A model generated the notes under the pieces. That model made no database searches. It saw only the letters and a program-made list of their open reading frames with translations, and was not told the DNA's origin. Positions 10,650 through 34,865 of a stretch of DNA of 64,000 bases are shown here, in pieces. Position 1 is the first letter of the stretch. Each line of letters opens with the position of its first letter. The stretch spans positions 11,759 through 75,758 of the forward strand of contig JAZRRE010000003.1 in NCBI GenBank assembly GCA_045650505.1, given 5' to 3'. The position numbers were made by a program, and so were the translations under genes. This DNA is from Clostridia bacterium (GTDB taxonomy: Bacteria > Bacillota > Clostridia > Christensenellales > UBA1242).

Positions 10650-10671
10650 TAAATAAATTGGGGGAGCTAAT

Positions 10672-11625: not shown

Positions 11626-11636
11626 GGAGAAAAAAT

Positions 11637-12146: not shown

Positions 12147-12152
12147 TTTTAT

Positions 12153-12183
12153 AAAGCAACTTGAAAATCAAGTTGCTTTTTTT
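12153..12183 (+). terminator. Rho-independent terminator of the ribosomal operon
   Basis: GCAACTTG-aaaat-CAAGTTGC followed by T7. Confidence 0.85.
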
Positions 12184-12296
12184 ATTCAAAAAATTTTGGA
12201 AATACTTGACCGTTAGTTATAAATAAGACTATACTTAAAATAGTGTTTAATAAAGGTGAAACCTTTATTAAATTAAATAAAATTAAGGAGTTTGAA

Positions 12297-15023: not shown

Positions 15024-15034
15024 AATAAACAAAA

Positions 15035-15067
15035 TAAAAATAGGAAGATTTTTCTTCCTATTTTTTT
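15035..15067. terminator. Bidirectional terminator between the ABC gene and mgtE
   Basis: A-run, then TAGGAAG-attttt-CTTCCTA, then T7. Confidence 0.75.
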
Positions 15068-15084
15068 ATGTTTAAAATTTAAAA

Positions 15085-17038: not shown

Positions 17039-17340
17039 TAGTTTAACAAAATTCTTGTTATATTTTATTCATAATTAAATTTTTATGAAACAGAATAAAT
17101 TTTGCATATAATCATTAATTTTAAGAAATTAAAATTATGCTTAAATTGTATAATTGAAAAATGGAAACGCTAAAAAATACATTTTTATGTAAAGTTTTAA
17201 AATAATTTCAAAATCTAAATTTTGCAAAAATTTTAGTTGAAATTTATAAAAGTTATAAAAAAGATAATTTTATAAATTATTCATTTGTTTGTGTTTTTGA
17301 TTTTATTCAGTTATAATAAGCACAGAAGGTGGAGATTTTT

Positions 17341-19653
17341 ATGAATTTTATTGAAACAATTTACAGCAAAATTTTACTTATGAGAAAGAATAAATTTAGT
17401 TTCCATGATGTTGCAAAAGCAACAGGGCTCACTTATGGTTTTGATAAGCGAACCCTAATTGACACTCTTGAAACACTTGTTAAACAAGAGAAACTTGGCA
17501 AACTTAAAAATGGTGATTATGTTGTTCTTAAAAAATCTCAAACAATTAAATGCACAATTTTAGGCACCAGCAAAGACTATGCTTTTGCAAGACCATTCAC
17601 AGGTGAAAAAGATAAAGACATTTTTATTGCTGAAGCAAATCTTAATGATGCGTGTCATGGTGACACAGTTCTCGTTGAAGTTGGAATTTCAGGTAAAGAT
17701 AGAAATTATAAACGCAATTTGCCACTTGTTGCAAAAGGAAAACAAGAAGGCAGGGTTGTTAAAATTTTAGAACGTGGATTTCAAGTGGTTGTGGGCATTA
17801 TGTCGATAAACGAAAGGGGAATCGCAACAGTTATTCCTGATGATAGGCGTTTTGCAGATTCGGTTTTTGTGTCTAGTGAAGACGTTAATGGTGCAGCAAA
17901 CAACACAAAGGTTGTGCTTGACATTCTTGATTATCCATCAAACATCAAAATGGCAAGAGGTCGCGTTCGTGAAATTTTAGGTGACCCAAATGATGCAAGA
18001 GTGACCACTCTTTCAATTATTCGCTCATTCAACTTGATTGAAGAGTTTCCTGATGATGTTGTTGCTGAAGCAGACAAGGTTTCGATTCCGGTTTCAAAAG
18101 AAGACCAAAAGGGCAGAAAAGATTATCGTGACAAACTTATCATCACAATTGATGGTGATGATGCGCGTGACTTTGATGACGCGATTTCTCTTGAAAAAGA
18201 TGGTGAAAATTATAAACTTGGCGTTTATATTGCCGATGTTTCGCACTATGTTCGAGGGGGTTCTAAAATTGACCAAGAAGCGTTCAAAAGAGCAACTTCT
18301 GTATATTTTCCTGACCATGTTCTTCCAATGCTTCCGGTTTCACTCTCAAACGGAATCTGCTCACTCAACCCAAAAGAAGACAGATTCACAATGGCTGTTG
18401 AAATGCTAATCAGCCCTGCAGGAAAAGTGCTTGACTATGAAATCCATAAAGGCATTATGCAGTCAAGTTATCGTATGACATACACAAAAGTTACCAAAAT
18501 TTTAAACGGTGATAAGAAACTTTGTGAAGAATATAAAGAAATTGTGCCAATGCTTGGGCTTATGGCAGAACTTGCCAAAATCTTGATTACAAGAAGAGAT
18601 AATGCAGGAAACCTTGATTTTGACATTCCAGCACCAGAAATTCATTTGAACGAAGATGGAACTGTTAAAGAAATCATTAGAAAGCCTCGTGATATTTCTG
18701 ACAGAGTTATTGAGCAGTTTATGGTGCTTACAAATGAAGTGGTTGCACGCCACTTTGATAAAATGAAAGTTCCTTTTGTTTATCGTATTCACGAAACACC
18801 AACAAGTGAAAAAGTTCAAAAATTCAGGGCTTTTGCAGGCAGTTTGGGGCTTCGTTTCCAAACAACAGGAACAGAGGCAAGCCCAAAAGATTTCCAAACA
18901 CTTTTGAAACTTTCAAAGGGTCAAGATTATTCAACTGCGCTTTCAAAAGTTATGCTTCGAAGTATGCAAAAGGCAAGATATGAAGTTCAAAACCTTGGTC
19001 ACTTTGGTTTGGCACTCAAAGATTATTGCCATTTCACTTCTCCGATTAGAAGATATCCTGACCTTACAATTCACAGAATTATGACTGAAATTTTAGAAGG
19101 CAGATTTGATAAGAAAAAGTATGAATTTTTCGAAGAATTTGCTGTTCAATCAGCAGAGCGTTCAAGCACAATGGAGCGACAAGCTGAAGAAGCAGAACGT
19201 GCGGTTGATGCTCAAAAGATGACCGAATATATGCAAACCAAAATTGGTGAAACATTTGAAGGCATCATTTCAGGCGTAACACAAAATGGCTTCTTTGTTG
19301 AACTTGAAAACACCATTGAAGGTTTTGTTTCAGTTTTAAGACTTCCAAAAGGTCATTATGATTATAACGAAAATAATTATAGTTTGAGCGGGCTTGGAAA
19401 AGTTTATCGCATTGGTGATAAAATTGAAATTCGCGTTGTTTCAACTGATATCGTGCTTCGCAGAATTGATTTCGAACTTGCAGACTTCCATAGAGAAGTT
19501 AGTGAAGATGAGTTTAATCACTTCAATGAAGACAGGAGAGATGAGAGAAATAATGACAGAAAAGGTTCTTCTAGAAGAAATGATAGAGATGACCAAAGGG
19601 GCAAAGAAAGAAAAGGCTCAACAAAAGGCAGGGGCAGAGGTTCAAGAAGATAA
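17341..19653 (+). CDS. rnr: Ribonuclease R
   Basis: RNB catalytic motif ITIDGDDARDFDDAISL, a C-terminal S1 domain and an R/G/K/D-rich basic tail. ATG 17341 follows AAGGTGGAG. Confidence 0.93.
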   Translation: MNFIETIYSKILLMRKNKFSFHDVAKATGLTYGFDKRTLIDTLETLVKQEKLGKLKNGDYVVLKKSQTIKCTILGTSKDYAFARPFTGEKDKDIFIAEANLNDACHGDTVLVEVGISGKDRNYKRNLPLVAKGKQEGRVVKILERGFQVVVGIMSINERGIATVIPDDRRFADSVFVSSEDVNGAANNTKVVLDILDYPSNIKMARGRVREILGDPNDARVTTLSIIRSFNLIEEFPDDVVAEADKVSIPVSKEDQKGRKDYRDKLIITIDGDDARDFDDAISLEKDGENYKLGVYIADVSHYVRGGSKIDQEAFKRATSVYFPDHVLPMLPVSLSNGICSLNPKEDRFTMAVEMLISPAGKVLDYEIHKGIMQSSYRMTYTKVTKILNGDKKLCEEYKEIVPMLGLMAELAKILITRRDNAGNLDFDIPAPEIHLNEDGTVKEIIRKPRDISDRVIEQFMVLTNEVVARHFDKMKVPFVYRIHETPTSEKVQKFRAFAGSLGLRFQTTGTEASPKDFQTLLKLSKGQDYSTALSKVMLRSMQKARYEVQNLGHFGLALKDYCHFTSPIRRYPDLTIHRIMTEILEGRFDKKKYEFFEEFAVQSAERSSTMERQAEEAERAVDAQKMTEYMQTKIGETFEGIISGVTQNGFFVELENTIEGFVSVLRLPKGHYDYNENNYSLSGLGKVYRIGDKIEIRVVSTDIVLRRIDFELADFHREVSEDEFNHFNEDRRDERNNDRKGSSRRNDRDDQRGKERKGSTKGRGRGSRR

Positions 19654-20768: not shown

Positions 20769-21212
20769 ATGAAAATTTTAACAGAAAATAGAGAAGCAAG
20801 ACATAATTACTTTTTAGAGCAAGCCTTTGAGGCGGGCATTGTTCTTGTTGGCAGCGAAGTTAAGTCTATTCGCGCAGGCAAAGCAAACCTTAAAGATAGT
20901 TATGTGCTTATTCGAAATGGTGAAGTCTTTCTTTTAAACTGTTTCATTTCAAATTTTGACAAAACAGGAATGTTTAAGCCAGATGAAAGAAGAACAAGAA
21001 AACTTTTGCTCAACAAGGCTGAAATTTTGAAGTTAGAGAGAAAAACAAAAGAGCAGGGTTACACCATTGTTCCAACAAAAATGTATTTAGTTGGTGACAA
21101 AGTTAAAGTTGAAATTGCTCTTGCAAAAGGTAAAAAACTTTACAACAAAAAAGAAGACAAAATGAAAGCAGACCTTAAGCGTTATGCTGAAAGGCAAATC
21201 AAAGTTGGTTAA
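20769..21212 (+). CDS. smpB: SsrA-binding protein SmpB
   Basis: ENREARHNYFLEQAFEAGIVLVGSEVKSIRAGKANLKDSYV... is an SmpB pattern. tmRNA lies immediately downstream. Confidence 0.96.
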   Translation: MKILTENREARHNYFLEQAFEAGIVLVGSEVKSIRAGKANLKDSYVLIRNGEVFLLNCFISNFDKTGMFKPDERRTRKLLLNKAEILKLERKTKEQGYTIVPTKMYLVGDKVKVEIALAKGKKLYNKKEDKMKADLKRYAERQIKVG

Positions 21213-21230: not shown

Positions 21231-21597
21231 GGGGGTGTTTCTGGTTTCGACAGGGAGCAAGAAATGCTATTTATAAGCGTGTGTGTAGCCTCGGCCTACA
21301 TTAAAAACGAGAAAAAAATAAACGCAGATAACTATTCTGTTGCTACTGACGTAGCAGTTGCTGCTTAATTTTAGCGGCTCGGCAATTTAAAATTTCTCAC
21401 TGGTTTTAAGTTGTTGTCATAATAAGTGGGGTGAACACTGTTGATGTTCGTGCATCAGTGTTCGAGATTTAACGGACTGGCTCAAAATGATTTTGTTTAT
21501 TTAAAGTTTTGTGTGAGACAATAAAATAAACTAGCACACGTAGAAGGGGTAGTCTTTCGCTTTTTGGACGCGGGTTCAAGTCCCGCCACCTCCACCA
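21231..21597 (+). ncRNA. ssrA: tmRNA (SsrA)
   Basis: 5' GGGGGTG pairs with 3' CACCTCCACCA, including a G3:U pair. T-arm GGACGCGGGTTCAAGTCCCGCC. The internal tag frame ends ...ADNYSVATDVAVAA-TAA (21324-21368). Confidence 0.93.
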
Positions 21598-21600
21598 AAT

Positions 21601-21718: not shown

Positions 21719-21735
21719 CCCGCCACCTCCACCAA
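21719..21735 (+). repeat. Direct repeat of the tmRNA 3' end (att-like)
   Basis: CCCGCCACCTCCACCAA is identical to 21582-21598, the last 17 nt of ssrA including one flanking base. Confidence 0.9.
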
Positions 21736-21858: not shown

Positions 21859-22428
21859 ATGAGTATATTTGATGATATAAAAGAATCAGTAGAAAATTTT
21901 TTCAAAGAAAAAACAACTAAATATAACAAATCTTCAAAATGGAAAGAATATAAACTTGGAGCAACTTTAACACATTGTGCAACTTGTTATGATAGAAATA
22001 ATAAAATTTACGAAGCATATTATAATGAACCAAAACTTCCAGAACACGATAATTGCAAATGTTATCTTGAGTGGCTCAAAAGTTTGGGTGTTGGAAAAGC
22101 AACGGAACTTGGAATAAATGGTGCAGATTTTTATCTAAAATATTATGGGCGTTTGCCAGAGTATTATATAACAAAACAAGAAGCAAAAAGTTTAGGTTGG
22201 AAGTCTTATAAGGGAAATTTTGACAAAGTTGCACCTGGAAAAATGATGGGTGGAAATATATATAAAAATAAATTGGGTATATTGCCAAACAAAGAAGGTC
22301 GAGTTTGGTATGAGTGTGATATTGATTATCAAGGTGGATACAGAAACAATGCAAGGCTTGTTTATTCAAATGATGGTTTGATATTTAAAACAGATAGTCA
22401 TTATACAAATTTTATAGCGATTGAATAA
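21859..22428 (+). CDS. Barnase-family ribonuclease toxin with an N-terminal MuF-type CxxC...HxNCxC motif
   Basis: The C-terminal ~110 aa align by eye with B. amyloliquefaciens barnase (LPEYYITKQEAKSLGWK...VAPGKMMGGNIYKN...GRVWYECDIDY...RNNARLVYSNDGLIFKTDSHYTNF). The N-terminus has CATCYDRNNKIY...LPEHDNCKCY. Confidence 0.88.
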   Translation: MSIFDDIKESVENFFKEKTTKYNKSSKWKEYKLGATLTHCATCYDRNNKIYEAYYNEPKLPEHDNCKCYLEWLKSLGVGKATELGINGADFYLKYYGRLPEYYITKQEAKSLGWKSYKGNFDKVAPGKMMGGNIYKNKLGILPNKEGRVWYECDIDYQGGYRNNARLVYSNDGLIFKTDSHYTNFIAIE

Positions 22429-22438
22429 GGAGAAAACT

Positions 22439-22717
22439 ATGGTAAAGTATGAATTTAATAGAAATGAATTTGAATGGGCAGAAGAGTTTTATGACATTAT
22501 TCAAAAGAAAATGAATTTGCCAGATTGGTTTGGAAAAAATCCAGATGCATTGTGGGATATGCTTACAGGTCACATTGAAACGCCTTGTGAAATTACACTA
22601 GTGGGTTTTAGTAGAGAAGAAAATGAATATAATAAAAAGGTTTTGGGTTATATATTTGACATTTTACGAGATGCACAAGAAGAGTTCCCAGACGAGTTTA
22701 AAATTATAATAAAATAG
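22439..22717 (+). CDS. Barstar-family immunity protein, copy 1
   Basis: F.DIIQKKMNLPDWFGKNPDALWDMLTGHIE matches the barstar YYGENLDALWDCLTG helix. AAGGAG RBS. ATG 22439 lies within the track ORF. Confidence 0.88.
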   Translation: MVKYEFNRNEFEWAEEFYDIIQKKMNLPDWFGKNPDALWDMLTGHIETPCEITLVGFSREENEYNKKVLGYIFDILRDAQEEFPDEFKIIIK

Positions 22718-22725
22718 GTGTTGCT

Positions 22726-23007
22726 ATGGTAAAGTATGAATTTAATAGAAATGAATTTGAATGGGCAGAAGAGTTTTATGATGTTATTCAAAAGAAAATG
22801 AATTTGCCAGATTGGTTTGGAAAAAATGCTGATGCTTTGTGGGATATGCTTACAGGTCACATAGAAACACCTTGTGAAATTATACTTATTGGTTTTAATA
22901 AAGAAGAAACAAATAAATATAATAAATTAATAATTGATAGAATACTTTTTTGTTTTGAAGAAGCAGAAAAAGAATATCCAGACGAATTTAAAATAATTAA
23001 AAAGTAG
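22726..23007 (+). CDS. Barstar-family immunity protein, copy 2
   Basis: The N-terminal ~55 aa are nearly identical to copy 1 (NADALWDMLTGH). The C-terminus has diverged. Confidence 0.88.
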   Translation: MVKYEFNRNEFEWAEEFYDVIQKKMNLPDWFGKNADALWDMLTGHIETPCEIILIGFNKEETNKYNKLIIDRILFCFEEAEKEYPDEFKIIKK

Positions 23008-23013
23008 GTTTTT

Positions 23014-23292
23014 ATGGTTAAATATGAATTTAATAGAAATGAATTTGAATGGGCAGAAGAGTTTTATGACATTATTCAAAAGAAAATGAATTTGCCAGAT
23101 TGGTTTGGAAAAAATCCACCTGCATTATGGGATATGCTTACAGGTTACATAGAAACACCTTGTGAAATTACACTTATTGGATTTAACAAGGAAGAAAATG
23201 ATTACAATAAAAAAGTTTTAGGGTATATACTTGAGAGATTTGAAGATGCAGAAAAAGAATTTCCTGATGAATTTAAAATAATTAAAAAGTAA
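23014..23292 (+). CDS. Barstar-family immunity protein, copy 3
   Basis: Same N-terminal block, but NPPALWDMLTGY. The first Asp of the barnase-binding helix is replaced by Pro. Confidence 0.85.
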   Translation: MVKYEFNRNEFEWAEEFYDIIQKKMNLPDWFGKNPPALWDMLTGYIETPCEITLIGFNKEENDYNKKVLGYILERFEDAEKEFPDEFKIIKK

Positions 23293-23378
23293 AAGTTCAA
23301 TTTAATTATGATGTTCTTCACCAATAATTAAGGCAAGTTTTGGCTTGTCTTTTTTTGTTTCGAAAAATTTATATTTAA

Positions 23379-23412
23379 TGTCCGTTTTTTTGGACAATAT
23401 GTTTGGTATGAT
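23379..23412 (+). promoter_or_regulatory. Operator-promoter module A: TGTCC-N8-GGACA dyad plus extended -10
   Basis: Dyad at 23379-23396, then 10 nt, then TGGTATGAT (-10 hexamer 23407-23412). Preceded by GAAAAATTT, as in modules C and D. Confidence 0.6.
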
Positions 23413-23445
23413 GTGGATAATAACAAAAAGCCAAAGGAGAAAACT

Positions 23446-24729
23446 ATGAAAGAGTTTGATAGAGTTATTGGATATGAATCAATTAAAAAAGAATTAAAAA
23501 GAATTTGTGATATTTTGGTGAATCCTGAAAAATATGACAAATTTGGGGTTAAAGCCTCACAGGGCTTGCTTTTGTTTGGTGACCCAGGTGTGGGCAAAAG
23601 TTTAATGGCGGAATGCTTCATTAATGCCACAAAAAGAAAGTGTTTTGTTTGCAGAAAAACCAAGCCAAACGGTGAATTTGTGAATGAAATCACAAAAACA
23701 TTTGAAGATGCCAAAGCAAATGCGCCATCAATTGTATTTCTTGATGATATGGATAAGTTTGCAAATGAAGATGAAAGAAGACCTGACACCGAAGAATATG
23801 TGACCATTCAATCTTGCATTGATGGAATTAAAGGCAGTGATGTGTTTGTTGTTGCGACCGCAAATGATATTTACAAACTTCCTTATTCACTTCGAAGGAC
23901 AGGCAGGTTCTCAAAAAGAATTGAAGTAAGAGCACCTGAAGGCAAAGATGCAGAAAACATTATTAAGTTTTATTTAAGCCAAAAAGACAAAGTCGGTGAT
24001 ATCAACTTAACCGAAATTTCAAGACTTCTCACAACAAAAACCTGTGCCGATTTAGAAATTATTGTAAATGAAGTAGGGGTTTATGCTGCAGCAGAAGGCA
24101 AAGAAAAAATTGAGCATAATGATATGGTTAGGGCATGTTTAAGAGTGTTATATGATGCACCTGAAGCAGAAGAATCTGTGTTTTCAAACAGCAGTGAGAA
24201 AAACAAGATGACTGCTTATCACGAAGCAGGGCATATTGTTGTTGCAGAAATTTTAGAGCCCGAAAGTGTAACCCTTGCATCTATTGCAAATTACACAGGT
24301 GATGCTGCAGGAATCACCTCAACTTATCAAACAAATGATTATTATCATTCAATCAAATATATGAAAAACAGAGTGAAAGTTGTGCTTGGTGGAAAGGCTG
24401 CAACTGAAATTGTGTTTGGTGAAATTGATGTTGGTGCAACAAATGATTTAAACAGAGCATTTAAAATTGCATCAAGATTTGATGATGACTATTGTGGAAT
24501 AGGTTTCGATTCAAATATTCGATACAACCATGATACATCAGATATGCAGAGAGAAAGACATAATCAAAAACTTGCAGTTGAACTTGAAAAATCTTATTTA
24601 GAAGTGAAAGAAATTATTGTTAAAAATCGTGAGTTTTTAGAAAAATTGGCTAACAAACTTTTAGAAAAAACAACAATTATGATGAGTGATATTCAAGAAA
24701 TTAAAAAGACTTGCAACATTTCAAGGTAG
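23446..24729 (+). CDS. Soluble FtsH-like AAA+ ATPase fused to an M41 zinc metalloprotease domain (no TM segments)
   Basis: Walker A GDPGVGKS, Walker B IVFLDDMD, SRH/Arg-finger ATANDIYKLPYSLRRTGRFS, and M41 motifs AYHEAGH...GGKAATEIVFG...GATNDL. ATG 23446 follows AAGGAG. The track start at 23413 directly abuts the predicted -10. Confidence 0.85.
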   Translation: MKEFDRVIGYESIKKELKRICDILVNPEKYDKFGVKASQGLLLFGDPGVGKSLMAECFINATKRKCFVCRKTKPNGEFVNEITKTFEDAKANAPSIVFLDDMDKFANEDERRPDTEEYVTIQSCIDGIKGSDVFVVATANDIYKLPYSLRRTGRFSKRIEVRAPEGKDAENIIKFYLSQKDKVGDINLTEISRLLTTKTCADLEIIVNEVGVYAAAEGKEKIEHNDMVRACLRVLYDAPEAEESVFSNSSEKNKMTAYHEAGHIVVAEILEPESVTLASIANYTGDAAGITSTYQTNDYYHSIKYMKNRVKVVLGGKAATEIVFGEIDVGATNDLNRAFKIASRFDDDYCGIGFDSNIRYNHDTSDMQRERHNQKLAVELEKSYLEVKEIIVKNREFLEKLANKLLEKTTIMMSDIQEIKKTCNISR

Positions 24730-24736
24730 GTGATTT

Positions 24737-25429
24737 ATGAGATATGTGGTTTCAGACATTCATGGCAATTATGATTTGCTTGTAAAATTATTAAATAAAA
24801 TTAAATTTTCAAAAGAAGACACATTGTTTGTTTTGGGTGATGTGATTGACAAGGGCAAAGATGTTCAAAAATTGTTAAATTTGCTTTTTGGTGAACTTCG
24901 TGATAACTCTTTTGTTCTTGCTGGAAATCATGAGTATGAGTTTGTGAAAATGGTTACCAACTTAATAACTCAAAATGCAAGTGACAAGAAAATTTTAGAG
25001 GAAAGCAAAAAGTTTTTGGGTGTTAAAAACTTAACACTTCAAGATGTTGATGACATTATGAATTTGCCTTATTTTCACGAAGAAGATGATTTTATTTTGG
25101 TTCATGCTGGTGTTCCATTCGATATGCGCGGAAATCAAATTCCTTTAGAACAAGCGGCTCTTGAAGATTTGGTTTATGATAGAAGATTTAAAAGAGAATG
25201 TTTTTTGCCTGAAAATTGTAAGTGTGTAATTTTTGGGCACACGCCAACATTTTATATTGAAGGGCATAGTGGCAAGATTATAAAATATCAAAAACCTAAA
25301 ACAGTGGGAAACAAGCCAAAAGATTATTACAAAATCCATATTGACACCGGCAATTATTTAACCGGAATTTTGGGCTGTTTGTGTCTTGATGATATGACAG
25401 AATATTATGTTAGTGAAATTGTTGAATAA
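24737..25429 (+). CDS. PPP-family metallophosphoesterase (PrpE/ApaH/lambda-phosphatase-like)
   Basis: Motifs VSDIHGN, GDVIDKG, GNHE, VHAG and GHTP occur in canonical order. Starts 8 nt after the protease gene. Confidence 0.85.
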   Translation: MRYVVSDIHGNYDLLVKLLNKIKFSKEDTLFVLGDVIDKGKDVQKLLNLLFGELRDNSFVLAGNHEYEFVKMVTNLITQNASDKKILEESKKFLGVKNLTLQDVDDIMNLPYFHEEDDFILVHAGVPFDMRGNQIPLEQAALEDLVYDRRFKRECFLPENCKCVIFGHTPTFYIEGHSGKIIKYQKPKTVGNKPKDYYKIHIDTGNYLTGILGCLCLDDMTEYYVSEIVE

Positions 25430-25433
25430 ATAG

Positions 25434-25467
25434 AAATGTGTCCAAAATAATGGACACATTTTGTTTT
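25434..25467 (+). terminator. Hairpin terminator that also contains a TGTCC-N8-GGACA dyad (module B)
   Basis: AAATGTGTCC-aaaataat-GGACACATTT followed by TTTTGTTTT. TGATATTAT (-10 hexamer 25475-25480) follows 18 nt after the dyad. Confidence 0.7.
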
Positions 25468-25517
25468 AAAATGATATTATGGAAATGATAAAAATTAGAA
25501 AATTAAAAAGGTTGAAA

Positions 25518-26510
25518 ATGGCTTACACAAACAATAAAAAATTATCCATAATTTATATTTTAGAAATTTTGAAAGAATATTCAGATGAAAAACACCCGCT
25601 CACACAAAATGAAATCTTGAAAAAACTTTATGATGTTTATGGAATGGAATGTGAAAGAAAATCTGTTGGTGCAAACATTGAAAATTTGATTGAAGCGGGC
25701 TATGACATCGTTAAATGTGAGGGTGGTGGCTGCTATCTTGGTGCACGCGATTTTGAGCAGAGTGAAATTTCGTTTTTGGTTGATGCAGTTTTTTCAAGCA
25801 AATCAATAGACAGCAAAAAATCGCGAGATTTGGCAAAGAAAATTTCGGCATTTTCAAGCAAATATGATAGAAAGAAATATAATTATATTTACAAAAGTGA
25901 TGAAATTTCAAGAACAAACAACAAGCAGTTGTTTTACACCATTGACATTTTGCACGAAGCAATAGAGCAGAAAAAACAGGTTGAATTTTCTTACGACAGA
26001 CCTTATGTTTCTAAAGCAAATCAAGAGAAACAACAAAATAAAAGATATATTGTGAATCCTTATTTTTTGGTTAATAATCAGGGCAGATATTATCTTGTGT
26101 GCAATTATCATTATTTTGATGATATTGCAAACTATAAACTTGACCAAATTAAAGATATCAAAATTTTAGAAAAAGATGCAAAACCAATTGAAAAGGTTAA
26201 AGGTTTTGAAAATGGACTTGATATTGCAAAGTATGCAAATGAAAATATTTATATGTTTTCAGCCGAAACTATTGATGCAGTTTTAAAACTTTCAGATGAG
26301 TATGCGGTTGGAATTTTAACCGATTGGTTTGGAACAAATGCAAGGGTTTATCAGCAAAATGGAGAGATTTTTGCTGATGTGAAAGCAAATGAAAAAGCCA
26401 TAGTTTATTGGGCACTTCAATATGGTGAGCACTTTGAACTTTTGTCACCACAACAAACACGCGAAAAAATCAAACAAGCAATAGAAACTTTAAACAAAAA
26501 ATACAATTAA
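25518..26510 (+). CDS. WYL-domain transcriptional regulator (wHTH-WYL-C-terminal extension)
   Basis: N-terminal wHTH-like region (IIYILEILKEYSDEKHPLTQNEILKKL...) and a central RYIVNPYFLVNNQGRYYLVCNY WYL signature. Start chosen downstream of the predicted -10, while the track start at 25479 overlaps it. Confidence 0.8.
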   Translation: MAYTNNKKLSIIYILEILKEYSDEKHPLTQNEILKKLYDVYGMECERKSVGANIENLIEAGYDIVKCEGGGCYLGARDFEQSEISFLVDAVFSSKSIDSKKSRDLAKKISAFSSKYDRKKYNYIYKSDEISRTNNKQLFYTIDILHEAIEQKKQVEFSYDRPYVSKANQEKQQNKRYIVNPYFLVNNQGRYYLVCNYHYFDDIANYKLDQIKDIKILEKDAKPIEKVKGFENGLDIAKYANENIYMFSAETIDAVLKLSDEYAVGILTDWFGTNARVYQQNGEIFADVKANEKAIVYWALQYGEHFELLSPQQTREKIKQAIETLNKKYN

Positions 26511-26527: not shown

Positions 26528-27214
26528 ATGTTTCAACAAAAAAGTATAAAAGATATTGTGGATGAAATTTATCAAGATATTGTTAATGGTAAAATTATTT
26601 TTGCAAATGAAAATCAATTTCAGTTTGAATTGGCGTGGAGAATTAAAAATGAGTATAAAAATTATGATGTAATTTTTGAGGCTGTCTATTTAGACAACAC
26701 AGGAAAGAAATGTTACACTGATTTAGTTGTGTTAGATAAAAACAATAAAAAATACACTCCAATTGAACTTAAATATAAAACAAAGAGTAGATATAAAAAT
26801 GATTTATTATTAAAAAATCAAGATGCACAAGGGCTTGCAGCATATGATTATTTAATGGATTTAATGAGAATAGAATTTTTACAACAAAATCCACAGCAAC
26901 AATTAAAATTTTATGAGTATTATGATAATAATCAAAGTTATTCATTTGATACAGGCTATGCAATAATGTTCACAAACGATAAATCTTATTATAACGGAGA
27001 TTGGATAAATAATCAGGCTAGAGATTTCTCAATAAAAGAGGGTTTAAACAAAACAGGAACTCTTAATTGGAATTTAAAAATCAATAAAGTTAATAATTTT
27101 GGAAAAAACAGACAAAATTCAATTATTTTAAAAAACAACTATTTGTGTGAATGGGCACCAAAAATTGCGATAAATAACAATAATTATTTTCGCTATTTAA
27201 TACTAGAAGTTTAG
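26528..27214 (+). CDS. Hypothetical protein, possible PD-(D/E)xK nuclease fold
   Basis: Ordered E (FQFELAWRI), D (CYTDLVVLD) and ExK (TPIELKYK) motifs. This is weak, motif-level evidence only. Confidence 0.45.
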   Translation: MFQQKSIKDIVDEIYQDIVNGKIIFANENQFQFELAWRIKNEYKNYDVIFEAVYLDNTGKKCYTDLVVLDKNNKKYTPIELKYKTKSRYKNDLLLKNQDAQGLAAYDYLMDLMRIEFLQQNPQQQLKFYEYYDNNQSYSFDTGYAIMFTNDKSYYNGDWINNQARDFSIKEGLNKTGTLNWNLKINKVNNFGKNRQNSIILKNNYLCEWAPKIAINNNNYFRYLILEV

Positions 27215-27224
27215 GAGAACATTT

Positions 27225-28100
27225 ATGGAAGAAAATAAAATTATGTTAAATGATATATTAAACTTTACAGAAGAAGAAATTAAAAATGCAAAAATAACAT
27301 TAAATATGACTGCTGGACATGATGGTAAAAGTTTTTTAGATTACTGGCTTGAAACAAATGATTTAAAAAATGCACAAAAACATTGTTATTGGTCACATGG
27401 AGGAGAAAAGGAAGAAAATAATAGAAATTTTACAAGAGAAGGACAGATAAATGTTGGATTTGTAAGAATGAATGAAAATGATAAGTGGTTATTAGTTACA
27501 ATAGGTAAGATTACAAAAATACCACAAAAACCGGACCATTGTGAATTTGAAGAATATAAAGAAAAATATATTGGGTTATATGGTAGGTTAATTATTAGGT
27601 GTAAAAAAGGTAATACATTTGCTAGATATTGTTTTAATTTAAGCACATTTTTAGATAATTGCGAAGTGCTAGAAATATTACCTAAAAGATATGAAGGGGA
27701 AGAATTTAAAGGATTTGACCAAATATCATTAAAATATGATGAGTTAAAAGATATGTTAGCGGAAAAATCAAGAAAGACTTGGAAAGAAGCATTAAGTCAA
27801 ATTAAAGGTGTATATTGTTTAACTGATAAAAAAACAGGGAAATTATATATTGGTTCTGCAACAGGTGAAAATGGTTTTTCTCAAAGATGGAATGATTATT
27901 TAAAAACAAAAACTGGTGGAAATGTTGAGTTAATAAAATTATATGAAAAAGAAGGTGAGCAATATTTTATTGATAATTTCCAATATACGGTATTAGAATG
28001 GTTTGGTTTAAATTATGATAATAAAAAAATTCTTGAAAGAGAAAATTATTGGAAAAATGCTTTTTCAACTCGTGAAGGAAATGGATACAATAAAAACTAA
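27225..28100 (+). CDS. GIY-YIG nuclease domain protein with an uncharacterised ~185-aa N-terminal domain
   Basis: C-terminal KGVYCLTDKKTGKLYIGSA...RWNDY...ERENYWK...N gives the GIY, YIG, Arg and Glu elements in order. Confidence 0.8.
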   Translation: MEENKIMLNDILNFTEEEIKNAKITLNMTAGHDGKSFLDYWLETNDLKNAQKHCYWSHGGEKEENNRNFTREGQINVGFVRMNENDKWLLVTIGKITKIPQKPDHCEFEEYKEKYIGLYGRLIIRCKKGNTFARYCFNLSTFLDNCEVLEILPKRYEGEEFKGFDQISLKYDELKDMLAEKSRKTWKEALSQIKGVYCLTDKKTGKLYIGSATGENGFSQRWNDYLKTKTGGNVELIKLYEKEGEQYFIDNFQYTVLEWFGLNYDNKKILERENYWKNAFSTREGNGYNKN

Positions 28101-28215
28101 AAAAGAAATCTTTTGATTTCTTTTTTTTTGCTGAAAAATTTAAAATCATTATGTCCGTTTTTTGGGGCTTGGTTTTTGATATTATAGGGTTAAGCAAAAG
28201 GAAGAATGATTATGA
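28093..28215 (+). repeat. Module C / repeat R1: terminator hairpin + dyad + extended -10 + RBS
   Basis: The first 38 nt are identical to 29221-29258 (AAAACTAAAAAAGAAATCTTTTGATTTCTTTTTTTTTG). The rest looks ~85% similar by eye. Dyad 28152-28169, -10 hexamer 28180-28185. Confidence 0.85.
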
Positions 28216-29222
28216 GTAAAATTGAATCAAGAAAAATATTGGTTGTTAACGATGGTGGAAAAAAATTAGAAAAAAGCGATTTATTATTTTCAACTATTGT
28301 ATCTATTTGGGAACAAGGCAGAGAAGAAATTGAAGATTTAATAAATATTATAAATAAAAAAGGTCAAGGCTTTAATTTTGACAATGATTTCATTATGAGA
28401 ACATGTCTTTATTTAATGTGTCCATCGTCTGAATTGAAAATTGAAAATTTGGGTTCAGAAAACATAAAAGCAATTAAAGATAATTGGGAAAATATTAAAA
28501 ACAGCATTATTAAAGCAGTTGATTTACTTAATTGTTTTGGTTTTTGTTCAGGAAATTTGGTTTCTAAAAATGTTGCAATCCCGGTTATTTATTACATTCA
28601 TAAGGACGGCAAATTAGATGAAGAGTCTATAAGTGAATTAAGAAAATATTTAATTATAGCACAAGTGAAACAGTTGTTTGGTGCTGCAGGCAATTCGGCT
28701 TTAGCAAAAATAAAAAAAGAATTAAACAACCACAAACTCAAAAAAGAAGGCTTTAAATTATCTTATTTTAATGAATTGAAATTTGTTGCACAAAGAGATT
28801 TTTCTGTTAACGAAGACTTGTTAGAAATAGTTTTAAATTATGATAAGGGTAGCCCTTATGCGTTTATGATATTATCTTTGTTATATCCAGAAATTAAAAT
28901 GAATGAAGTTCAATGGCATCAAGACCATATGCACCCATATGCGAAATTTAACACGAAAAATTTAAAGAGTTTGGGAATAAATGAAGGAAAAATTATTGAA
29001 TGGCAAAAAATGAGAGATAAATTACCAAATTTGCAATTACTTGTAGGAAATGTAAATGAAAGTAAAAATGATATGGATTTGGAAGAATGGCTCAATAAAG
29101 GTAATATTGATAAATATTTGCCTAGAAAAATTTCTTATAAACTTGTTGATTTTGAAAAATTTTATGAAAAAAGAAGAGAACTTTTAAAAGATGAATTAAA
29201 AAAGATATTTGATATTAAATAA
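28212..29222 (+). CDS. GmrSD-family fragment: distal DUF262 part + DUF1524 His-Me finger, N-terminal catalytic part missing
   Basis: Starts at the ...NDGGKKLEKSDLLFS... motif that lies mid-DUF262. The DGQQR-type N-terminal motifs are absent. C-terminal HQDHMHP...NLQLLVGNVNESKN is a DUF1524/HNH-like motif. Confidence 0.7.
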   Translation: MSKIESRKILVVNDGGKKLEKSDLLFSTIVSIWEQGREEIEDLINIINKKGQGFNFDNDFIMRTCLYLMCPSSELKIENLGSENIKAIKDNWENIKNSIIKAVDLLNCFGFCSGNLVSKNVAIPVIYYIHKDGKLDEESISELRKYLIIAQVKQLFGAAGNSALAKIKKELNNHKLKKEGFKLSYFNELKFVAQRDFSVNEDLLEIVLNYDKGSPYAFMILSLLYPEIKMNEVQWHQDHMHPYAKFNTKNLKSLGINEGKIIEWQKMRDKLPNLQLLVGNVNESKNDMDLEEWLNKGNIDKYLPRKISYKLVDFEKFYEKRRELLKDELKKIFDIK

Positions 29223-29347
29223 AACTAAAAAAGAAATCTTTTGATTTCTTTTTTTTTGAAAAAATTTGAAATTATTTTTCAAATCCGTTTTTTGGGATTC
29301 TTCTTTTGATATTATAGAGTTATACAAAAGGAGGAAGGAAATATGAG
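29221..29347 (+). repeat. Module D / repeat R2: terminator hairpin + dyad + extended -10 + RBS
   Basis: Direct repeat of 28093-28215. Dyad AATCC-N8-GGATT at 29282-29299, then 10 nt, then TGATATTAT (-10 hexamer 29310-29315). Confidence 0.85.
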
Positions 29348-29579
29348 TGAAAATGAATTAAGAAAAAAAATTGATGAATTATTGGTGGTTGATGATGTGA
29401 GCATGGCAAGAATGAAAAGTGTGCTCAAAATTGGTTACACAAGGGCTGCAAAAATTATAAACTTTCTTGATGAAGAAGGTTATTTGATTGAAATGGGTTG
29501 TTATCAAAAGAAGTTTAACTTCGATTTTTATGATGAACTCAAAGATGTGATTTTTGAATGGTTTTGTGAAGTTGCCTAA
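29343..29579 (+). CDS. Small stand-alone FtsK-gamma-like winged-helix protein (78 aa)
   Basis: VSMARMKSVLKIGYTRAAKIINFLDEEGYLIE resembles the FtsK gamma domain core (LQR.L.IGY.RAA.I.D.LE..G.I). Confidence 0.65.
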   Translation: MSENELRKKIDELLVVDDVSMARMKSVLKIGYTRAAKIINFLDEEGYLIEMGCYQKKFNFDFYDELKDVIFEWFCEVA

Positions 29580-29639: not shown

Positions 29640-31298
29640 TTAAAATGAGCGATATTTTTCAAAATATTCTTGAAGTGTTTTGCACTCTTTCATTTTTTTG
29701 AGGGTGCTTGCTTGAAGTCGTTGTTTATATTCTTCGGTTTCGGCTTGGTTTTGAATTTTGCCTTCAAGAACAGATTTTAAAATTCTAGACATTGTTCCAG
29801 ATGATTTGAAAAGATTGTGTGAAGAAGCATAAGCATCTGCCATATCAATCATTTCAGGAGTTGGGGTGGCATATGAACCATCAGGCATAATGAATTTGGC
29901 ATTTCCACTTGAATACATACCATAGTCAAAATCGGCTGAATATGAATCAAGTTTTTTGTATAAACCTGTTTTTTTGTTGAAAAGTTTATTTCTGGCATCA
30001 GGTGAAATTTGATTTGAAACGATTACAAAAGGTTTTGCAAACTCATTTCCTAAATTTATTGTTGCACCAGACTTTCTTTTATGGGCAACTAATGCAGTCA
30101 TTAAAAATTTAACTTCTGCATCTGTTAATCTCTTTAAAATTTCACTTTCTTCGGTTGAGTTTGAATCATATGAGTGAATTCGTTCATAATAATATGAAAT
30201 AATGTTTTCAGCAAAACGAATGATGTGAGTATTGTCAACGGTTGAAAGTCCAATATCCATAACAGTTGCAAGGCTTTTCATTTGTGATTGATTTGTCAAC
30301 ATTTCAGGAATATCAAGTTTGCCTTCGGCAATATCTTCAATTTGGTGTTTTATTATTGCAACATATGCTTGAGATTTTCTCTTGCTGTTTTCTTTATAAA
30401 ATTCTGCAAATTCAGGGTTTAAAAGAGAAACTTTTTCACACATTTTCTTAAAACCGGCAACATTTTCAATTTGAAACACACGGCAGAACTCTGTTGCTGA
30501 TAAACCACTATTCATAAAATAGTTCGCAATAAAAAAGTAGTCTTCAGCAGAAGTGATTTTCATTCCATCAGCAAGTTCAAAAAGTTGCATTAGTTCACCG
30601 TTGTCATCTGTCCAAGACATCTTTTTCACAAGGCGAATTTGTTGTTGAATCGCAGAGGTTTTCTTTCCGTGTTCACTTTGAAATTTGCGAAGTTGTTCGT
30701 CACCTTCAATATAAGCCAAAATAGCTTCAGGAACTTTGCTTTTATCTTCGATTTGGCTGTAATGTTCAACAACGTTTTGTCTTCCAAATGGGCTGATTGA
30801 ACTTGTTCGTGTCATAACAAATTTCAATTTGTCAGGAGCGTGAACTGCAATCCATTCAAGGGCTTCCCAAGGCTTATCTTCAGGAATTGAGTAGAGAAGT
30901 CTGTCATCAACTTTGTGTTGAACTTTCATTTTATAAATGTTTTCAGGGTGAACAATAACTTCGCGGCAAAGTTTTGGAAGTGTTAAAATTTGTTCTTTTG
31001 AATATTCTTTAAAATCTTTTGGTGAAAGTGTTTTAAACATTATTGGCCAAAACAAAACATCATAAGCAACTTCTGGGTGTTTTAAACAAAAGTCAATAAT
31101 GGTTTTTTTGTTTAAAATAAGGTTTTGAATGAGATCCATTTCATCATATTCAAGATGTGCGCGTTCGTAATAACCAGCATCTTTATGCGAAAGCAATTTT
31201 TCAACGATGTGATATGCATAGAAATGGCTATGGTTATTTGTTCTTACATAATTAAAATTGTTAAGCAATTCTTCTCTTAAAATCTCTCGTTTTTCCAT
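29640..31298 (-). CDS. Hypothetical protein (552 aa), no recognisable domain
   Basis: Clean long ORF. Its ATG overlaps the stop of the upstream 54-aa ORF (TAATG). No motif recognised. Confidence 0.7.
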   Translation of the reverse strand: MEKREILREELLNNFNYVRTNNHSHFYAYHIVEKLLSHKDAGYYERAHLEYDEMDLIQNLILNKKTIIDFCLKHPEVAYDVLFWPIMFKTLSPKDFKEYSKEQILTLPKLCREVIVHPENIYKMKVQHKVDDRLLYSIPEDKPWEALEWIAVHAPDKLKFVMTRTSSISPFGRQNVVEHYSQIEDKSKVPEAILAYIEGDEQLRKFQSEHGKKTSAIQQQIRLVKKMSWTDDNGELMQLFELADGMKITSAEDYFFIANYFMNSGLSATEFCRVFQIENVAGFKKMCEKVSLLNPEFAEFYKENSKRKSQAYVAIIKHQIEDIAEGKLDIPEMLTNQSQMKSLATVMDIGLSTVDNTHIIRFAENIISYYYERIHSYDSNSTEESEILKRLTDAEVKFLMTALVAHKRKSGATINLGNEFAKPFVIVSNQISPDARNKLFNKKTGLYKKLDSYSADFDYGMYSSGNAKFIMPDGSYATPTPEMIDMADAYASSHNLFKSSGTMSRILKSVLEGKIQNQAETEEYKQRLQASTLKKMKECKTLQEYFEKYRSF

Positions 31299-34394: not shown

Positions 34395-34865
34395 ATGGAA
34401 AAAAGAATAAGCTGCAGAGCAATCATTTTAAACGATGACGGACTAGTTGTTATGTATCGAAACAAAAACGGAAGCGAATATTATACACTTCCTGGTGGAG
34501 GAATGGAAAATGCTGAAACCGAACACGAATGTGTGAAAAGAGAATGCATTGAAGAATTTGGAATTTCTGTTGAGCCACTCAAAAAACTTTATGTTTTAGA
34601 AGACACAAAAACCATTCAACACATTTATTATTGTAAGTGGGTTTCTGGAAAACTTGGAACCGGCACAGGTGAAGAGTTTGAAGCAGGTAATGGAAAGGGC
34701 GTTTACAACCCAATGCAAATTGTGTTTAATAAACTTGCTGAAACAAATTTAGTTCCACCAGAAATCAAAGAGAGAATTTTGAAAGATTATAACGCCGACA
34801 AAAATTTTGTGGGTGACAGATTTGAATCTGTTTCAAGTGTTATAAAATTAGAGAGTGACTATTAA
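34395..34865 (+). CDS. NUDIX hydrolase
   Basis: Nudix box GGGMENAETEHECVKRECIEEFGI (GX5EX7REUXEEXGU). Confidence 0.88.
   Translation: MEKRISCRAIILNDDGLVVMYRNKNGSEYYTLPGGGMENAETEHECVKRECIEEFGISVEPLKKLYVLEDTKTIQHIYYCKWVSGKLGTGTGEEFEAGNGKGVYNPMQIVFNKLAETNLVPPEIKERILKDYNADKNFVGDRFESVSSVIKLESDY

Follow-up and report, generated by a model that had tools for sequence, protein, structure and literature searches.

FtsH-type proteases are textbook membrane-anchored quality-control enzymes, so what is a gene for such an enzyme without its membrane anchor doing in an accessory island, immediately ahead of a phosphatase gene? The question is raised by a locus in a 64 000-nt stretch of contig JAZRRE010000003.1 from a Clostridia bacterium (hereafter the window), for which an initial annotation, made from the sequence alone, proposed a two-gene operon acting as a novel stress or defence module. 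All features described below lie on the forward strand.

The first gene (23446–24729) encodes a soluble, 427-aa FtsH-like AAA+/peptidase M41 protein, as judged from Pfam, motifs and an AF2 model. The listed open reading frame (23413–24729) opens with GTG and would give 438 aa; the likely start is the ATG at 23446, with an AAGGAG 6 nt before it, and this agrees with the coordinate initially annotated. In the 438-aa numbering, an AAA domain covers residues 52–173 (7.3e-21; 75.4 bits against a gathering score of 21.2 for classical AAA, PF00004) and Peptidase_M41 residues 260–430 (2.3e-22; 80.2 bits against 29.9 for PF01434). In the 427-aa protein, Walker A (GDPGVGKS, residues 45–52) is preceded by 44 residues, sensor-1 Asn140 and the two arginines of the second region of homology (Arg151 and Arg154) are retained, HEAGH is intact (residues 259–263), and Asp334 falls at the position of the Asp in the 'GAxND' segment of FtsH, which we take, from published FtsH structures, to be the third zinc ligand. 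The AF2 model (pLDDT 89.7) finds FtsH, AFG3L2 and YME1 as its top PDB matches. The full cytosolic architecture of FtsH, AAA+ followed by M41 with HEAGH, is thus borne out by Pfam and motif alignment, as had been claimed.

The claimed loss of the N-terminal transmembrane and periplasmic part holds as well. No transmembrane segment was found in the protease, whose highest 19-residue Kyte–Doolittle mean is 1.13, and the FtsH hallmark of a pair of N-terminal transmembrane helices flanking a periplasmic domain is missing. A membrane-spanning N-terminus encoded upstream in frame, which the initial annotation had named as grounds for abandoning its reading, is not there: stop codons in all three upstream frames rule out an upstream transmembrane exon or a frameshift, and the preceding gene, a barstar, ends at 23292. 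As a whole the protein scores 201.8 bits against the FtsH equivalog TIGR01241, for which the cut-off is 600. It also departs from FtsH at Walker B, where hhhhDE with its catalytic Glu would be expected; alignment to FtsH confirmed the previously noted Asp in this place (IVFLDDMD, residues 96–103, against IDEID). On these sequence grounds the first gene encodes an ATP-dependent zinc protease of the FtsH lineage that is soluble; its activity and its assembly into a ring are predictions. With the catalytic Glu replaced by Asp, ATP hydrolysis should be slowed rather than abolished. In the alignment the pore-1 loop reads FVN, with a four-residue deletion, where FtsH has FVG, and this loop together with the DD Walker B makes translocation of substrates possible, not assured.

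The second gene (24737–25429; Pfam, motifs, AF2 model) encodes a 230-aa PPP-type metallophosphoesterase resembling lambda phosphatase, ApaH and the Pnkp phosphatase domain. It starts 7 nt past the protease stop codon (8 nt in the initial annotation), and its ribosome-binding site overlaps that stop. The Metallophos domain is clear (2.8e-16; 61 bits against 21.5) and all of the PPP motifs that had been reported are present (SDIHG at residue 6, GDVIDKG at 34, GNHE at 63, VHAG at 122 and GHT at 167). The top PDB matches of its AF2 model (pLDDT 94.1) are 1g5b, 2qjc and ApaH, but against the NCBIfam equivalogs for ApaH, PrpE and PrpA it reaches at best 61.4 bits where the cut-off is 176. Its substrate may be a phosphoprotein, an Ap4A-like nucleotide or a nucleic-acid end.

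How the pair may be controlled is suggested by its promoter and those of its neighbours. A terminator-like hairpin (23330–23351, terminator scan) ends the upstream barnase/barstar genes, which form a separate unit with no box seen upstream of 21859. The promoter of the protease/phosphatase operon (23380–23412) then combines an operator, GTCCGTTTTTTTGGAC (23380–23395), with an extended -10, TGGTATGAT (23404–23412). Beyond the phosphatase lies the promoter of a WYL operon (25440–25480), with operator GTCCAAAATAATGGAC (25440–25455) and extended -10 TGATATTAT; this operator sits inside a longer palindrome (25434–25461) that may also terminate the preceding operon. The WYL operon opens with a wHTH-WYL-WCX regulator of about 330 aa from the ATG at 25518 (25518–26510; the listed reading frame starts at 25479, and orthologues are 330 aa), which matches Pfam WYL (8.6e-14; 51.7 bits against 21.8), WCX (1.3e-5; 25.9 against 23.9) and the PADLOC WYL model (2.1e-27). 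The WYL and WCX scores place it with repressors of the CapW/BrxR type, in which these domains follow an N-terminal wHTH. Two further genes (26528–28100) are co-transcribed with it, encoding a 228-aa protein and a UzuA-like GIY-YIG nuclease (27225–28100; PADLOC UzuA 4.7e-47, Pfam GIY-YIG 1.2e-7). A third boxed promoter (GTCCGTTTTTTGGGG + TGATATTAT, 28153) precedes a GmrSD_C/HEC-05-like gene (28206–29222) that matches only the C-terminal half of the profile, and a fourth (ATCCGTTTTTTGGGAT + TGATATTAT, 29283) precedes a gene for a 78-aa FtsK-gamma-like wHTH protein (29343–29579; Pfam FtsK_gamma 1.1e-5, below the gathering score). The box, GTCC/ATCC-N8-GGAC/GGAT followed by TGnTAnnAT, occurs at these four sites (23380, 25440, 28153 and 29283) and nowhere else in the 64 kb. 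The operator-bearing promoter that the initial annotation believed to be common to the pair and the neighbouring nuclease genes is therefore real, and the WYL protein is the predicted repressor of all four boxed promoters, a prediction made from sequence. Repressors built in this way are known to come off their operators on sensing ssDNA (PMC11662680).

The accessory location of the pair was likewise correctly recognized. The island lies directly 3' of the tmRNA, holds the UzuA-like, GmrSD_C/HEC-05-like and WYL genes, and ends near 34 kb. A 39-kb variable region, considered because of a match to the 4HBT gene of a related locus (L081) at 61.1 kb of the window, was rejected: Spo0A, AdhE and SipL lie between the island and that point, so the match reflects a rearrangement between genomes. 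In three related loci (L081, L082 and L293) the protease-operon box precedes the orthologous operon, and a box identical to GTCCAAAATAATGGAC precedes the WYL operon; their boxed promoters carry the same boxes at different chromosomal sites. Neither the protease nor the phosphatase is covered by a system model in PADLOC-DB v2.0.0, the protease having only weak, AAA-level matches to IetA/TRIP13 and the phosphatase none.

The protease belongs to a sizeable family. After clustering at 50% identity, about 146 of the 150 best representatives are family proteins that lack transmembrane segments, nearly all of them 410–470 aa long, and their hosts are Bacillota of gut and rumen. The signature DD-x-DKFAN (hhhhDDxDKFAN) and HEAGH are conserved throughout, the DD Walker B being present in all of the 117 (of 120) closest homologues in which the motif search located Walker B, and G45..K51, N140, R151, R154, HEAGH and Asp334 are invariant. 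The DD motif is, in these sequences, a feature of the whole family, which the initial annotation missed. A scan of genome contigs with the family alignment and an AYHEAGH pattern was swamped by canonical FtsH and gave only three family loci (L001–L003); it was replaced by a family-specific DNA pattern for LDDxDKFAN, which matched family loci only among the loci already collected and yielded 120 metagenome loci. The distribution of the family is patchy. A scan of viral contigs returned mostly FtsH of giant viruses and cyanophages and only three to four family loci, the few members on IMG/VR contigs being L093–L095 and L172; there was none in 50 697 cultured phage records and only one in 72 556 plasmids, on Butyrivibrio proteoclasticus pCY186, among WYL, DnaX, DnaA/Hda and PolC genes. 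Databases name the family simply 'AAA family ATPase' or 'cell division protease FtsH'. A full-text literature search found no paper describing it, or any AAA-M41 defence or stress protein without transmembrane segments.

Neighbours were counted within three genes on either side of 86 dereplicated family loci, many of which are short contigs. The commonest is a WYL gene (22 of 86) and the second commonest a Metallophos gene (10 of 86), followed by PAD_porph (7), GmrSD_N (6) and PDDEXK_4 (5); retron RT, McrBC, DUF2779, Mrr, HD and SNF2 genes also occur. Most of the identifiable neighbours are defence-type nucleases, and 7 of the 40 long loci lie next to a tmRNA or tRNA. Not every setting is a defence island: some belong to the replication modules of plasmids or other elements, as at L092 (RNase_T, DnaB_C, FtsK and UDG-like neighbours). 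L085 has a DUF1351/DuOB neighbour and L088 an ArdA-like gene. Bacillota thus carry the protease gene as an accessory module, in their defence islands and mobile elements.

The operator extends beyond the close relatives. Family genes and WYL genes have in common a palindromic operator, GTnC-N8-GnAC, over an extended -10 promoter, and it recurs in distant family loci: the stricter GT[ACG]C-N8-G[CGT]AC was found upstream of 15 of 72 family operon heads, 6 of 29 separate WYL operon heads and 15 of 292 other heads, and we estimate that chance alone would give about 0.02 sites in each upstream region. The A/T-rich spacer is the same in most of the 15 'other' sites, at least two of which are the box of the family operon itself, counted from a gene that diverges from it.

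Some family members are also linked to a DNA-binding domain. The FtsK-gamma domain, to which the wHTH of the window's 78-aa protein is homologous, is fused to three homologues, N-terminally in P0030 and C-terminally in P0246 and P0267, and an FtsK-gamma wHTH is encoded beside the protease at some loci. As a general partner it was rejected, being limited to a minority of loci and the three fusions. The initial annotation contained neither these fusions nor the link to a WYL repressor, and did not see that DD is conserved across the family.

The reading that we prefer, and to which we give an even chance, is that of a WYL-controlled, inducible module built on a soluble FtsH-type protease, with the phosphatase optional, as a candidate for defence or stress response. 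What the data show is the protein architecture, the signature of the family, its gene neighbourhoods and the common operators; the operator-binding protein, the inducing signal, the substrates and an anti-phage role we infer as follows. The wHTH-WYL-WCX repressor would bind GTnC-N8-GnAC operators overlapping the promoters and hold off transcription of the protease and the neighbouring nuclease genes; by analogy with CapW, BrxR and DriD, ssDNA or DNA damage during phage infection or prophage induction would make it let go; once induced, the protease would unfold certain target proteins and break them down, and the invader would be blocked or the cell halted. That an FtsK-gamma wHTH is at times fused to the protease or encoded beside it hints at targets associated with DNA. 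We counted against this reading the 57 of 72 family operon heads without the strict operator pattern, the replication-module contexts, the altered pore-1 loop and Walker B, the absence of a covering PADLOC model and the fact that WYL regulators are common in defence islands generally. Protease and WYL sequences co-vary weakly in a mirror-tree comparison (r = 0.27), so they are probably not a tightly co-evolving pair.

The model that grows out of the initial annotation is instead a defence system that needs both genes, in which the protease would be the effector and the phosphatase would reset or degrade a signal. The tight spacing of the genes and the overlapping ribosome-binding site fit such a system, as does the conservation of the pair in all the close relatives that were examined, where the flanks are of four different kinds, with at least nine further contigs judged by their matching lengths to carry both genes. 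Metallophos genes, where present, mostly lie directly downstream of the protease (8 of 10 loci), and metallophosphatases have been validated in defence, in DS-8 and DS-9 (PMC13092281). The identities of the two proteins co-vary with r = 0.81, but over only 8 loci, three of them close relatives. Across the family, however, the pair is not the conserved unit it was taken to be: Metallophos is found near 10 of 86 family genes against 22 of 86 for WYL, many family genes on long contigs have no phosphatase, and phosphatase homologues at or below 50% identity occur in unrelated contexts without the protease. Recurrence as neighbours, which the initial annotation had wanted checked, is accordingly seen in the window's clade, where pairing is the rule down to about 64% protease identity, and not across the family. 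We consider an obligate pair unlikely, and the phosphatase is best read as a clade-specific, translationally linked helper, an optional partner of the protease. A housekeeping role of the pair, in protein quality control or sporulation, is hardly credible. The host is a spore former, since Spo0A and SipL are in the window, and in Bacillus both FtsH and phosphatases of the PrpE type have roles in sporulation and germination; against this, the pair occupies variable islands at tmRNA or tRNA sites with flanks that differ in each genome, so that it is no ubiquitous core gene pair, its distribution is patchy, and the protease falls far under the FtsH equivalog cut-off.

Three further readings were weighed. 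The protease might be a regulator, turning the island on by proteolysis of the WYL repressor or of some other island regulator, in the manner of CapP cleaving CapH or CalpL cleaving CalpT. Control of immune operons by a protease plus a repressor has precedent (PMC13228613, PMC11662680), the neighbourhood and operator link to WYL genes is strong, and in the window, L081 and L293 the protease heads the island, before the nuclease cassettes. This type of WYL protein, however, answers its ligand directly, with no need of a protease (PMC11662680), an operator on the protease's own promoter would make the protease scarce exactly when it is needed, and most family loci have no WYL gene in the available sequence, the co-variation with WYL being weak; we regard this role as rather doubtful. 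That the gene serves its mobile element (replication control, maintenance, or counter-defence by degradation of host proteins) rather than host defence is suggested by the pCY186 context, by the neighbours at L092, L085 and L088, by the few members on IMG/VR contigs and by the best PHROG match of the phosphatase, to NinI-like phage phosphatases (9.4e-37). The near absence of the family from cultured phages and plasmids and its defence-type neighbours argue otherwise, no integrase, capsid or conjugation genes were seen in the window's island, and we think service to an element improbable. More speculative still is a DNA-tethered module, for defence or repair, that clears bound or covalently attached proteins from DNA. 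Here the AAA-M41 protease would be recruited to DNA by an FtsK-gamma-type wHTH, fused or separate, and would digest such proteins there, among them relaxases, rolling-circle Rep proteins, phage terminal proteins and trapped adducts of topoisomerases or nucleases. The leftover phospho-amino-acid–DNA link would be hydrolysed, or the DNA end healed, by the metallophosphoesterase, and the whole would be ssDNA-induced through the WYL repressor. We hold this to be a long shot; if true, bacteria would have an equivalent of the eukaryotic Cdc48/SPRTN-plus-TDP/Mre11 pathway.

Returning to the inducible WYL-controlled module, its interest lies in a large, conserved, soluble branch of FtsH with a family-wide Walker B change, residing in defence islands and mobile elements and within predicted WYL-repressor regulons. 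This points to a candidate new use of the FtsH machine, in which proteolysis would be inducible, possibly directed to DNA, and would serve as an effector or a switch. If it proves protective against phages or plasmids, an ATP-dependent metalloprotease would be added to the known defence effectors, and one repressor with four promoters would provide a tractable regulon for the joint switching-on of defence islands.

Among known systems, the membrane proteases FtsH, AFG3L2 and YME1 are closest in build, having the same order of classical AAA module, lid and M41 protease, the same HEAGH, downstream Asp, sensor-1 Asn and paired arginines, and, for the cytosolic region of FtsH, a fold on which the predicted structure superposes with TM 0.75–0.80. 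They are membrane-anchored, whereas the window protease has neither transmembrane helices nor a periplasmic or intermembrane domain; identity to FtsH is 26–30%, DE and FVG in FtsH are replaced by DD and the shortened FVN loop, and FtsH is a core gene while this one is accessory and island-borne. IetAS, an IetA AAA ATPase with an IetS serine protease, likewise joins an FtsH-related, classical-clade AAA to a protease in a defence-island setting, and its IetA PADLOC model matches the AAA part of our protein (4.1e-19, partial). However, the window protease has its M41 zinc domain fused to the ATPase and scores 50 bits against the 510-bit cut-off of the NCBIfam anti-phage ATPase model; membership was rejected, with no IetS or other serine protease gene in the island. 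FtsH-type AAA domains have also been recruited into predicted MoxR-vWA ternary conflict systems of Actinobacteria, Deltaproteobacteria and Planctomycetes, which combine two such domains with MoxR and vWA partners (Kaur et al., 2020; PMC7159879). Assignment to these was rejected, since the architecture differs and none of the partners is found here. The phosphatase has all the PPP/MPP metal-binding motifs of lambda phosphatase (NinI), ApaH and the bacterial Pnkp phosphatase domain, but its best fold matches (1g5b, 2qjc, 2dfj/9ojd and 4j6o) are only 17–20% identical, it reads GDVIDKG where the PPP motif is GDxxDRG, and it stays below every NCBIfam equivalog cut-off. The regulation, finally, resembles that of CapW/BrxR-controlled operons, in that the regulator found in the island shares their three-domain layout and the island has predicted palindromic operators over the WYL gene's own promoter and those of neighbouring defence-type genes. 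Derepression by ssDNA is the logic expected of such repressors (PMC11662680), but where their cargo is CBASS or BREX, the predicted cargo here is a soluble FtsH-like protease that may or may not be joined by a phosphatase.

The protease gene probably starts at an ATG at 23446, preceded by AAGGAG, and runs to 24729, encoding a 427-residue product with the Pfam domains AAA (7.3e-21) and Peptidase_M41 (2.3e-22). The closest NCBIfam model is FtsH, but the score of 201.8 bits falls well short of the 600-bit cut-off, and the match spans only profile positions 154–597, the cytosolic part. The protein has no hydrophobic segment (highest 19-residue hydropathy 1.13), and stop codons 5' of the gene in every frame leave no in-frame upstream transmembrane extension. 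Residue-level alignment to Thermus FtsH identified a Walker A motif (GDPGVGKS), a pore-1 loop reduced by a four-residue deletion to FVN (FVGVGAA in FtsH), the sensor-1 Asn, the two SRH arginines, HEAGH and the Asp of the 'GAxND' segment, which we take from published FtsH structures to be the third zinc ligand. Walker B reads IVFLDDMD, as opposed to IVFIDEID in FtsH, so that Asp replaces the catalytic Glu. The AlphaFold2 model is confident (pLDDT 89.7, pTM 0.81) and matches over its whole length the cytosolic regions of FtsH (3kds, TM 0.75), AFG3L2 (0.80) and YME1 (0.76). The initial annotation had described just such an FtsH-like AAA+/M41 protease, lacking a membrane segment and substituted at Walker B with HEAGH intact, and had placed a PPP-type phosphatase next to it; these descriptions hold, except that the phosphatase gene (24737–25429) starts 7 nt, not 8, past the protease stop codon. 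The phosphatase carries the full set of PPP-type motifs and falls under all NCBIfam equivalog cut-offs. Among PHROG families it is closest to the NinI-like phosphatases, and its model (pLDDT 94.1) is nearest in fold to lambda phosphatase, a putative Ap4A hydrolase, ApaH and the Pnkp phosphatase domain (TM 0.57–0.69).

The protease belongs to a large, well-conserved family. Nearly all of the best 120 matches among 5.8 billion proteins are 417–460 amino acids long, and five contain a segment of hydropathy > 1.6. A motif search located Walker B in 117 of these 120, reading hhhhDD in every case, and HEAGH is present in 119. Invariant residues in an 85-sequence alignment include G45, G50, K51, F78, D100, D101, K104, N107, N140, R151, R154, C200, H259–H263, E268 and D334. 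When cluster representatives at 50% identity were searched exhaustively, the same short, N-terminally complete type made up about 146 of the 150 best matches, with DDxDKF in 114 and HExxH in 145 of them. Database names are 'AAA family ATPase' or 'cell division protease FtsH' only, and the hosts are Clostridia and Bacilli from gut and rumen samples. Conservation of the arginine fingers and sensor-1 argues that the ATPase site is in use. In P-loop ATPases, a Glu-to-Asp change at the catalytic position of Walker B is expected to make hydrolysis slow, and by analogy the family's hydrolysis would be slow.

The genomic setting is an island directly 3' of a conserved block of RNase R (17329–19653), SmpB (20769–21212) and, as its last element, tmRNA (21231–21597). 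The 17 terminal nucleotides of the tmRNA gene (CCCGCCACCTCCACCAA, 21582–21598) recur 137 nt downstream at 21719–21735, where chance would predict no copy; the repeat looks like an att-type integration scar, and the island would have inserted at the tmRNA 3' end. Core genes resume at Spo0A (35737) and AdhE (36658), so the island extends over ~21.6–34.3 kb in this spore-forming member of the Clostridia (~32% G+C). The orthologous island in locus L081 also follows tmRNA, while that in L293 follows tRNA-Thr. On the plus strand, the two genes under study are followed by a WYL/WCX regulator (25518–26510), a 228-aa protein matching no known family (26528–27214), a UzuA-like GIY-YIG nuclease (27225–28100), a GmrSD_C/HEC-05-like protein (28206–29222) and a 78-aa FtsK-gamma-like protein (29343–29579).

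Several other features of the island deserve mention. Upstream of the protease lie a 189-aa protein (21859–22428, plus strand) with a barnase-type ribonuclease as its C-terminal half (Pfam Ribonuclease, 2.8e-12), and three tandem barstar genes (22421–23292, plus strand) 76–86% identical at the DNA level. Together (21859–23292) they resemble a toxin accompanied by an enlarged set of immunity genes, and form a separate transcription unit without a GTCC-N8-GGAC box. The GmrSD_C-like protein matches PADLOC HEC-05 at 6.3e-92 over profile positions 257–594 of 600 only; it lacks the DUF262/GmrSD_N N-terminal half, which adjacent ORFs do not supply. Its gene either has been truncated or encodes a C-terminal nuclease form that stands alone. 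A 38-nt terminator-like sequence in two identical copies (28093–28130, 29221–29258), each with a promoter/operator block behind it (28154–28209, 29284–29339; the blocks are 80% identical), brackets this gene in cassette fashion, suggesting that genes may be exchanged by recombination between repeated regulatory blocks. At the distal end, transcribed towards the island on the minus strand, are a 552-aa protein without a family match (29640–31298) and an 898-aa ResIII/DEAD-type helicase (31597–34293) with only a weak PADLOC match (PDC-M27C); they and a NUDIX gene (34395–34865) that matches PDC-S07 (7e-12) are possible additional, uncharacterised defence candidates.

The initial annotation's accessory setting is borne out, and its operator-bearing promoter common to neighbouring genes proved to be four boxed promoters, the only ones in the 64-kb window: at 23380 (protease operon), 25440 (WYL operon), 28153 (GmrSD_C-like gene) and 29283 (FtsK-gamma-like gene). 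They share one design, a GTCC/ATCC-N8-GGAC/GGAT palindrome, 8–15 nt and an extended −10 (TGnTAnnAT). The same boxes stand ahead of the matching operons of L081, L082 and L293, whose islands lie at different chromosomal sites. At distant loci the box becomes GTAC-N8-GTAC or GTGC-N8-GTAC with an A/T-rich spacer; L204, for example, has GTACAAAATAATGTAC ahead of the protease gene and GTACATAATAATGTAC ahead of the WYL gene, and similar pairs occur in L259 and L094. The pattern GT[ACG]C-N8-G[CGT]AC is found upstream of 15 of 72 protease operon heads, six of 29 separate WYL operon heads and 15 of 292 other operon heads at the same loci, where by our calculation chance gives ~0.02 sites per upstream region. 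Most of the 15 'other' sites share the A/T-rich spacer and so look like additional regulon members; at least two (L081, L082) belong to the family operon itself and were counted again for a divergently transcribed neighbour. L081 also carries a second WYL/WCX paralogue (14404–15390, 64% identical in DNA to the window's) and, at 13152, 13955 and 14340, extra promoters with an ATCC-N8-GGAT box; cassettes in the regulon can thus outnumber those of the window. The wHTH-WYL-WCX regulators CapW and BrxR repress their own and cargo promoters (PMC11662680; PMC9122601), and single-stranded DNA releases CapW (PMC11662680). From this precedent and the putative operators, we take the protease operon to be a probable member of a WYL-repressor regulon.

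To the homologues from six look-ups on long contigs we added 120 metagenome loci found with the family-specific DNA pattern TNYTNGAYGAYNNNGAYAARTTYGCNAAY; the resulting 137 loci collapsed into 86 groups at 90% identity. Among Pfam domains encoded no more than three genes away from the protease, WYL was the commonest (22 of 86 loci; nine upstream, 13 downstream), followed by Metallophos (10; eight downstream), PAD_porph (seven), GmrSD_N (six), PDDEXK_4 (five), FtsK_SpoIIIE (four), HD (three, downstream count only) and DUF2779 (two, upstream count only). Neighbours also include McrBC, Mrr, SNF2 helicase and retron RT genes, and PADLOC matches many of the neighbours, among them retron RT, PDC-S26, PDC-S02, HEC-06 and SspE/SspH. 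One sub-clade, ~39–48% identical to the window protein (L205 and 15 near-identical loci, L217, L254, L222, L291, L182), has a recurring gene set linked to the protease: a Sel1/TPR protein, a PAD_porph-type deiminase, a CPCC protein rich in cysteine, an Ec107-like retron-type reverse transcriptase (2e-114) and a 225-aa product of unknown family. In L088–L091, the protease is flanked by a separate 148-aa Metallophos gene and an ArdA-like gene, and three genes away (10526–13636) lies a 1036-aa Metallophos/nSTAND NTPase protein, resembling in layout the validated metallophosphatase–NACHT defence protein DS-8 (PMC13092281).

The family is accessory and horizontally mobile, as judged from its distribution. 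It is absent from 50,697 cultured phage records and present in one of 72,556 plasmids, pCY186 of Butyrivibrio proteoclasticus, beside WYL, DnaX, DnaA/Hda and PolC genes; some metagenomic loci have replication-type or anti-restriction neighbours, and tRNA or tmRNA genes flank seven of 40 long loci. Its genes lie mostly amid defence-type genes and sometimes in element backbones. A role for the mobile element itself, in replication control, maintenance or counter-defence, would suit such backbones but is unlikely overall; no integrase, capsid or conjugation genes were found in the window's island. A housekeeping or sporulation role for this accessory family is very improbable.

The initial annotation had suggested that the two genes could serve as effector and signal reset. 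The pairing stands throughout the window's clade, for example in L081 (86% protease identity), L082 (75%) and L293/L294, with differing flanks, and contigs of identical length in the protease and phosphatase hit lists indicate that both genes lie on at least nine further contigs. Protease and phosphatase also co-vary (r = 0.81, though over eight loci only). Beyond the clade, however, the pair is sporadic at 41–55% protease identity (L083, L090, L180, L176, L224, L241), many long contigs carry the protease unpaired, and phosphatase homologues at ≤ 50% identity sit beside a zf_Tbcl gene, a TIR-HD protein or an acetyltransferase. The phosphatase is thus a real, recurrent, yet optional partner, and an obligate two-gene system of effector and signal reset is unlikely. 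Equally, a regulatory protease that removes the repressor seems improbable, as co-variation with WYL is weak (r = 0.27, 32 loci), arguing against a tightly co-evolving pair.

The reading we prefer, to which we give about an even chance, is a WYL-repressed, damage- or infection-inducible protease. The repressor would keep the operon off until DNA damage or infection induced the soluble FtsH-type enzyme, which would then degrade specific, perhaps DNA-associated, proteins, the phosphatase acting as a clade-specific helper. Domain fusions suggest that the protease may be brought to DNA: an FtsK-gamma winged-helix domain is N-terminal in protein P0030 and C-terminal in P0246 and P0267, the tail of the last matching E. 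coli FtsK gamma (2j5p, E = 1e-6). In L082 and L293/L294 an FtsK-gamma gene immediately precedes that of the protease, and the window's FtsK-gamma-like gene shares the protease operon's promoter type. These fusions are independent, but number three among ~270 family proteins, with such neighbours in a handful of loci. The module is a strong candidate for experimental testing, and the functions given for it here are putative.

Among known systems, identity with IetAS was rejected, there being no IetS, as was identity with the FtsH ternary system of Kaur et al. No PADLOC model covers the protease, and we found no published description of an AAA-M41 protein without a transmembrane segment in defence or stress, although such a search cannot prove absence. 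The protease shares its fold and protease site with FtsH, but differs in its missing membrane anchor, curated score and Walker B. We rate it as a protease of the FtsH lineage whose form is new: soluble, carried in islands and apparently wired into a WYL regulon.
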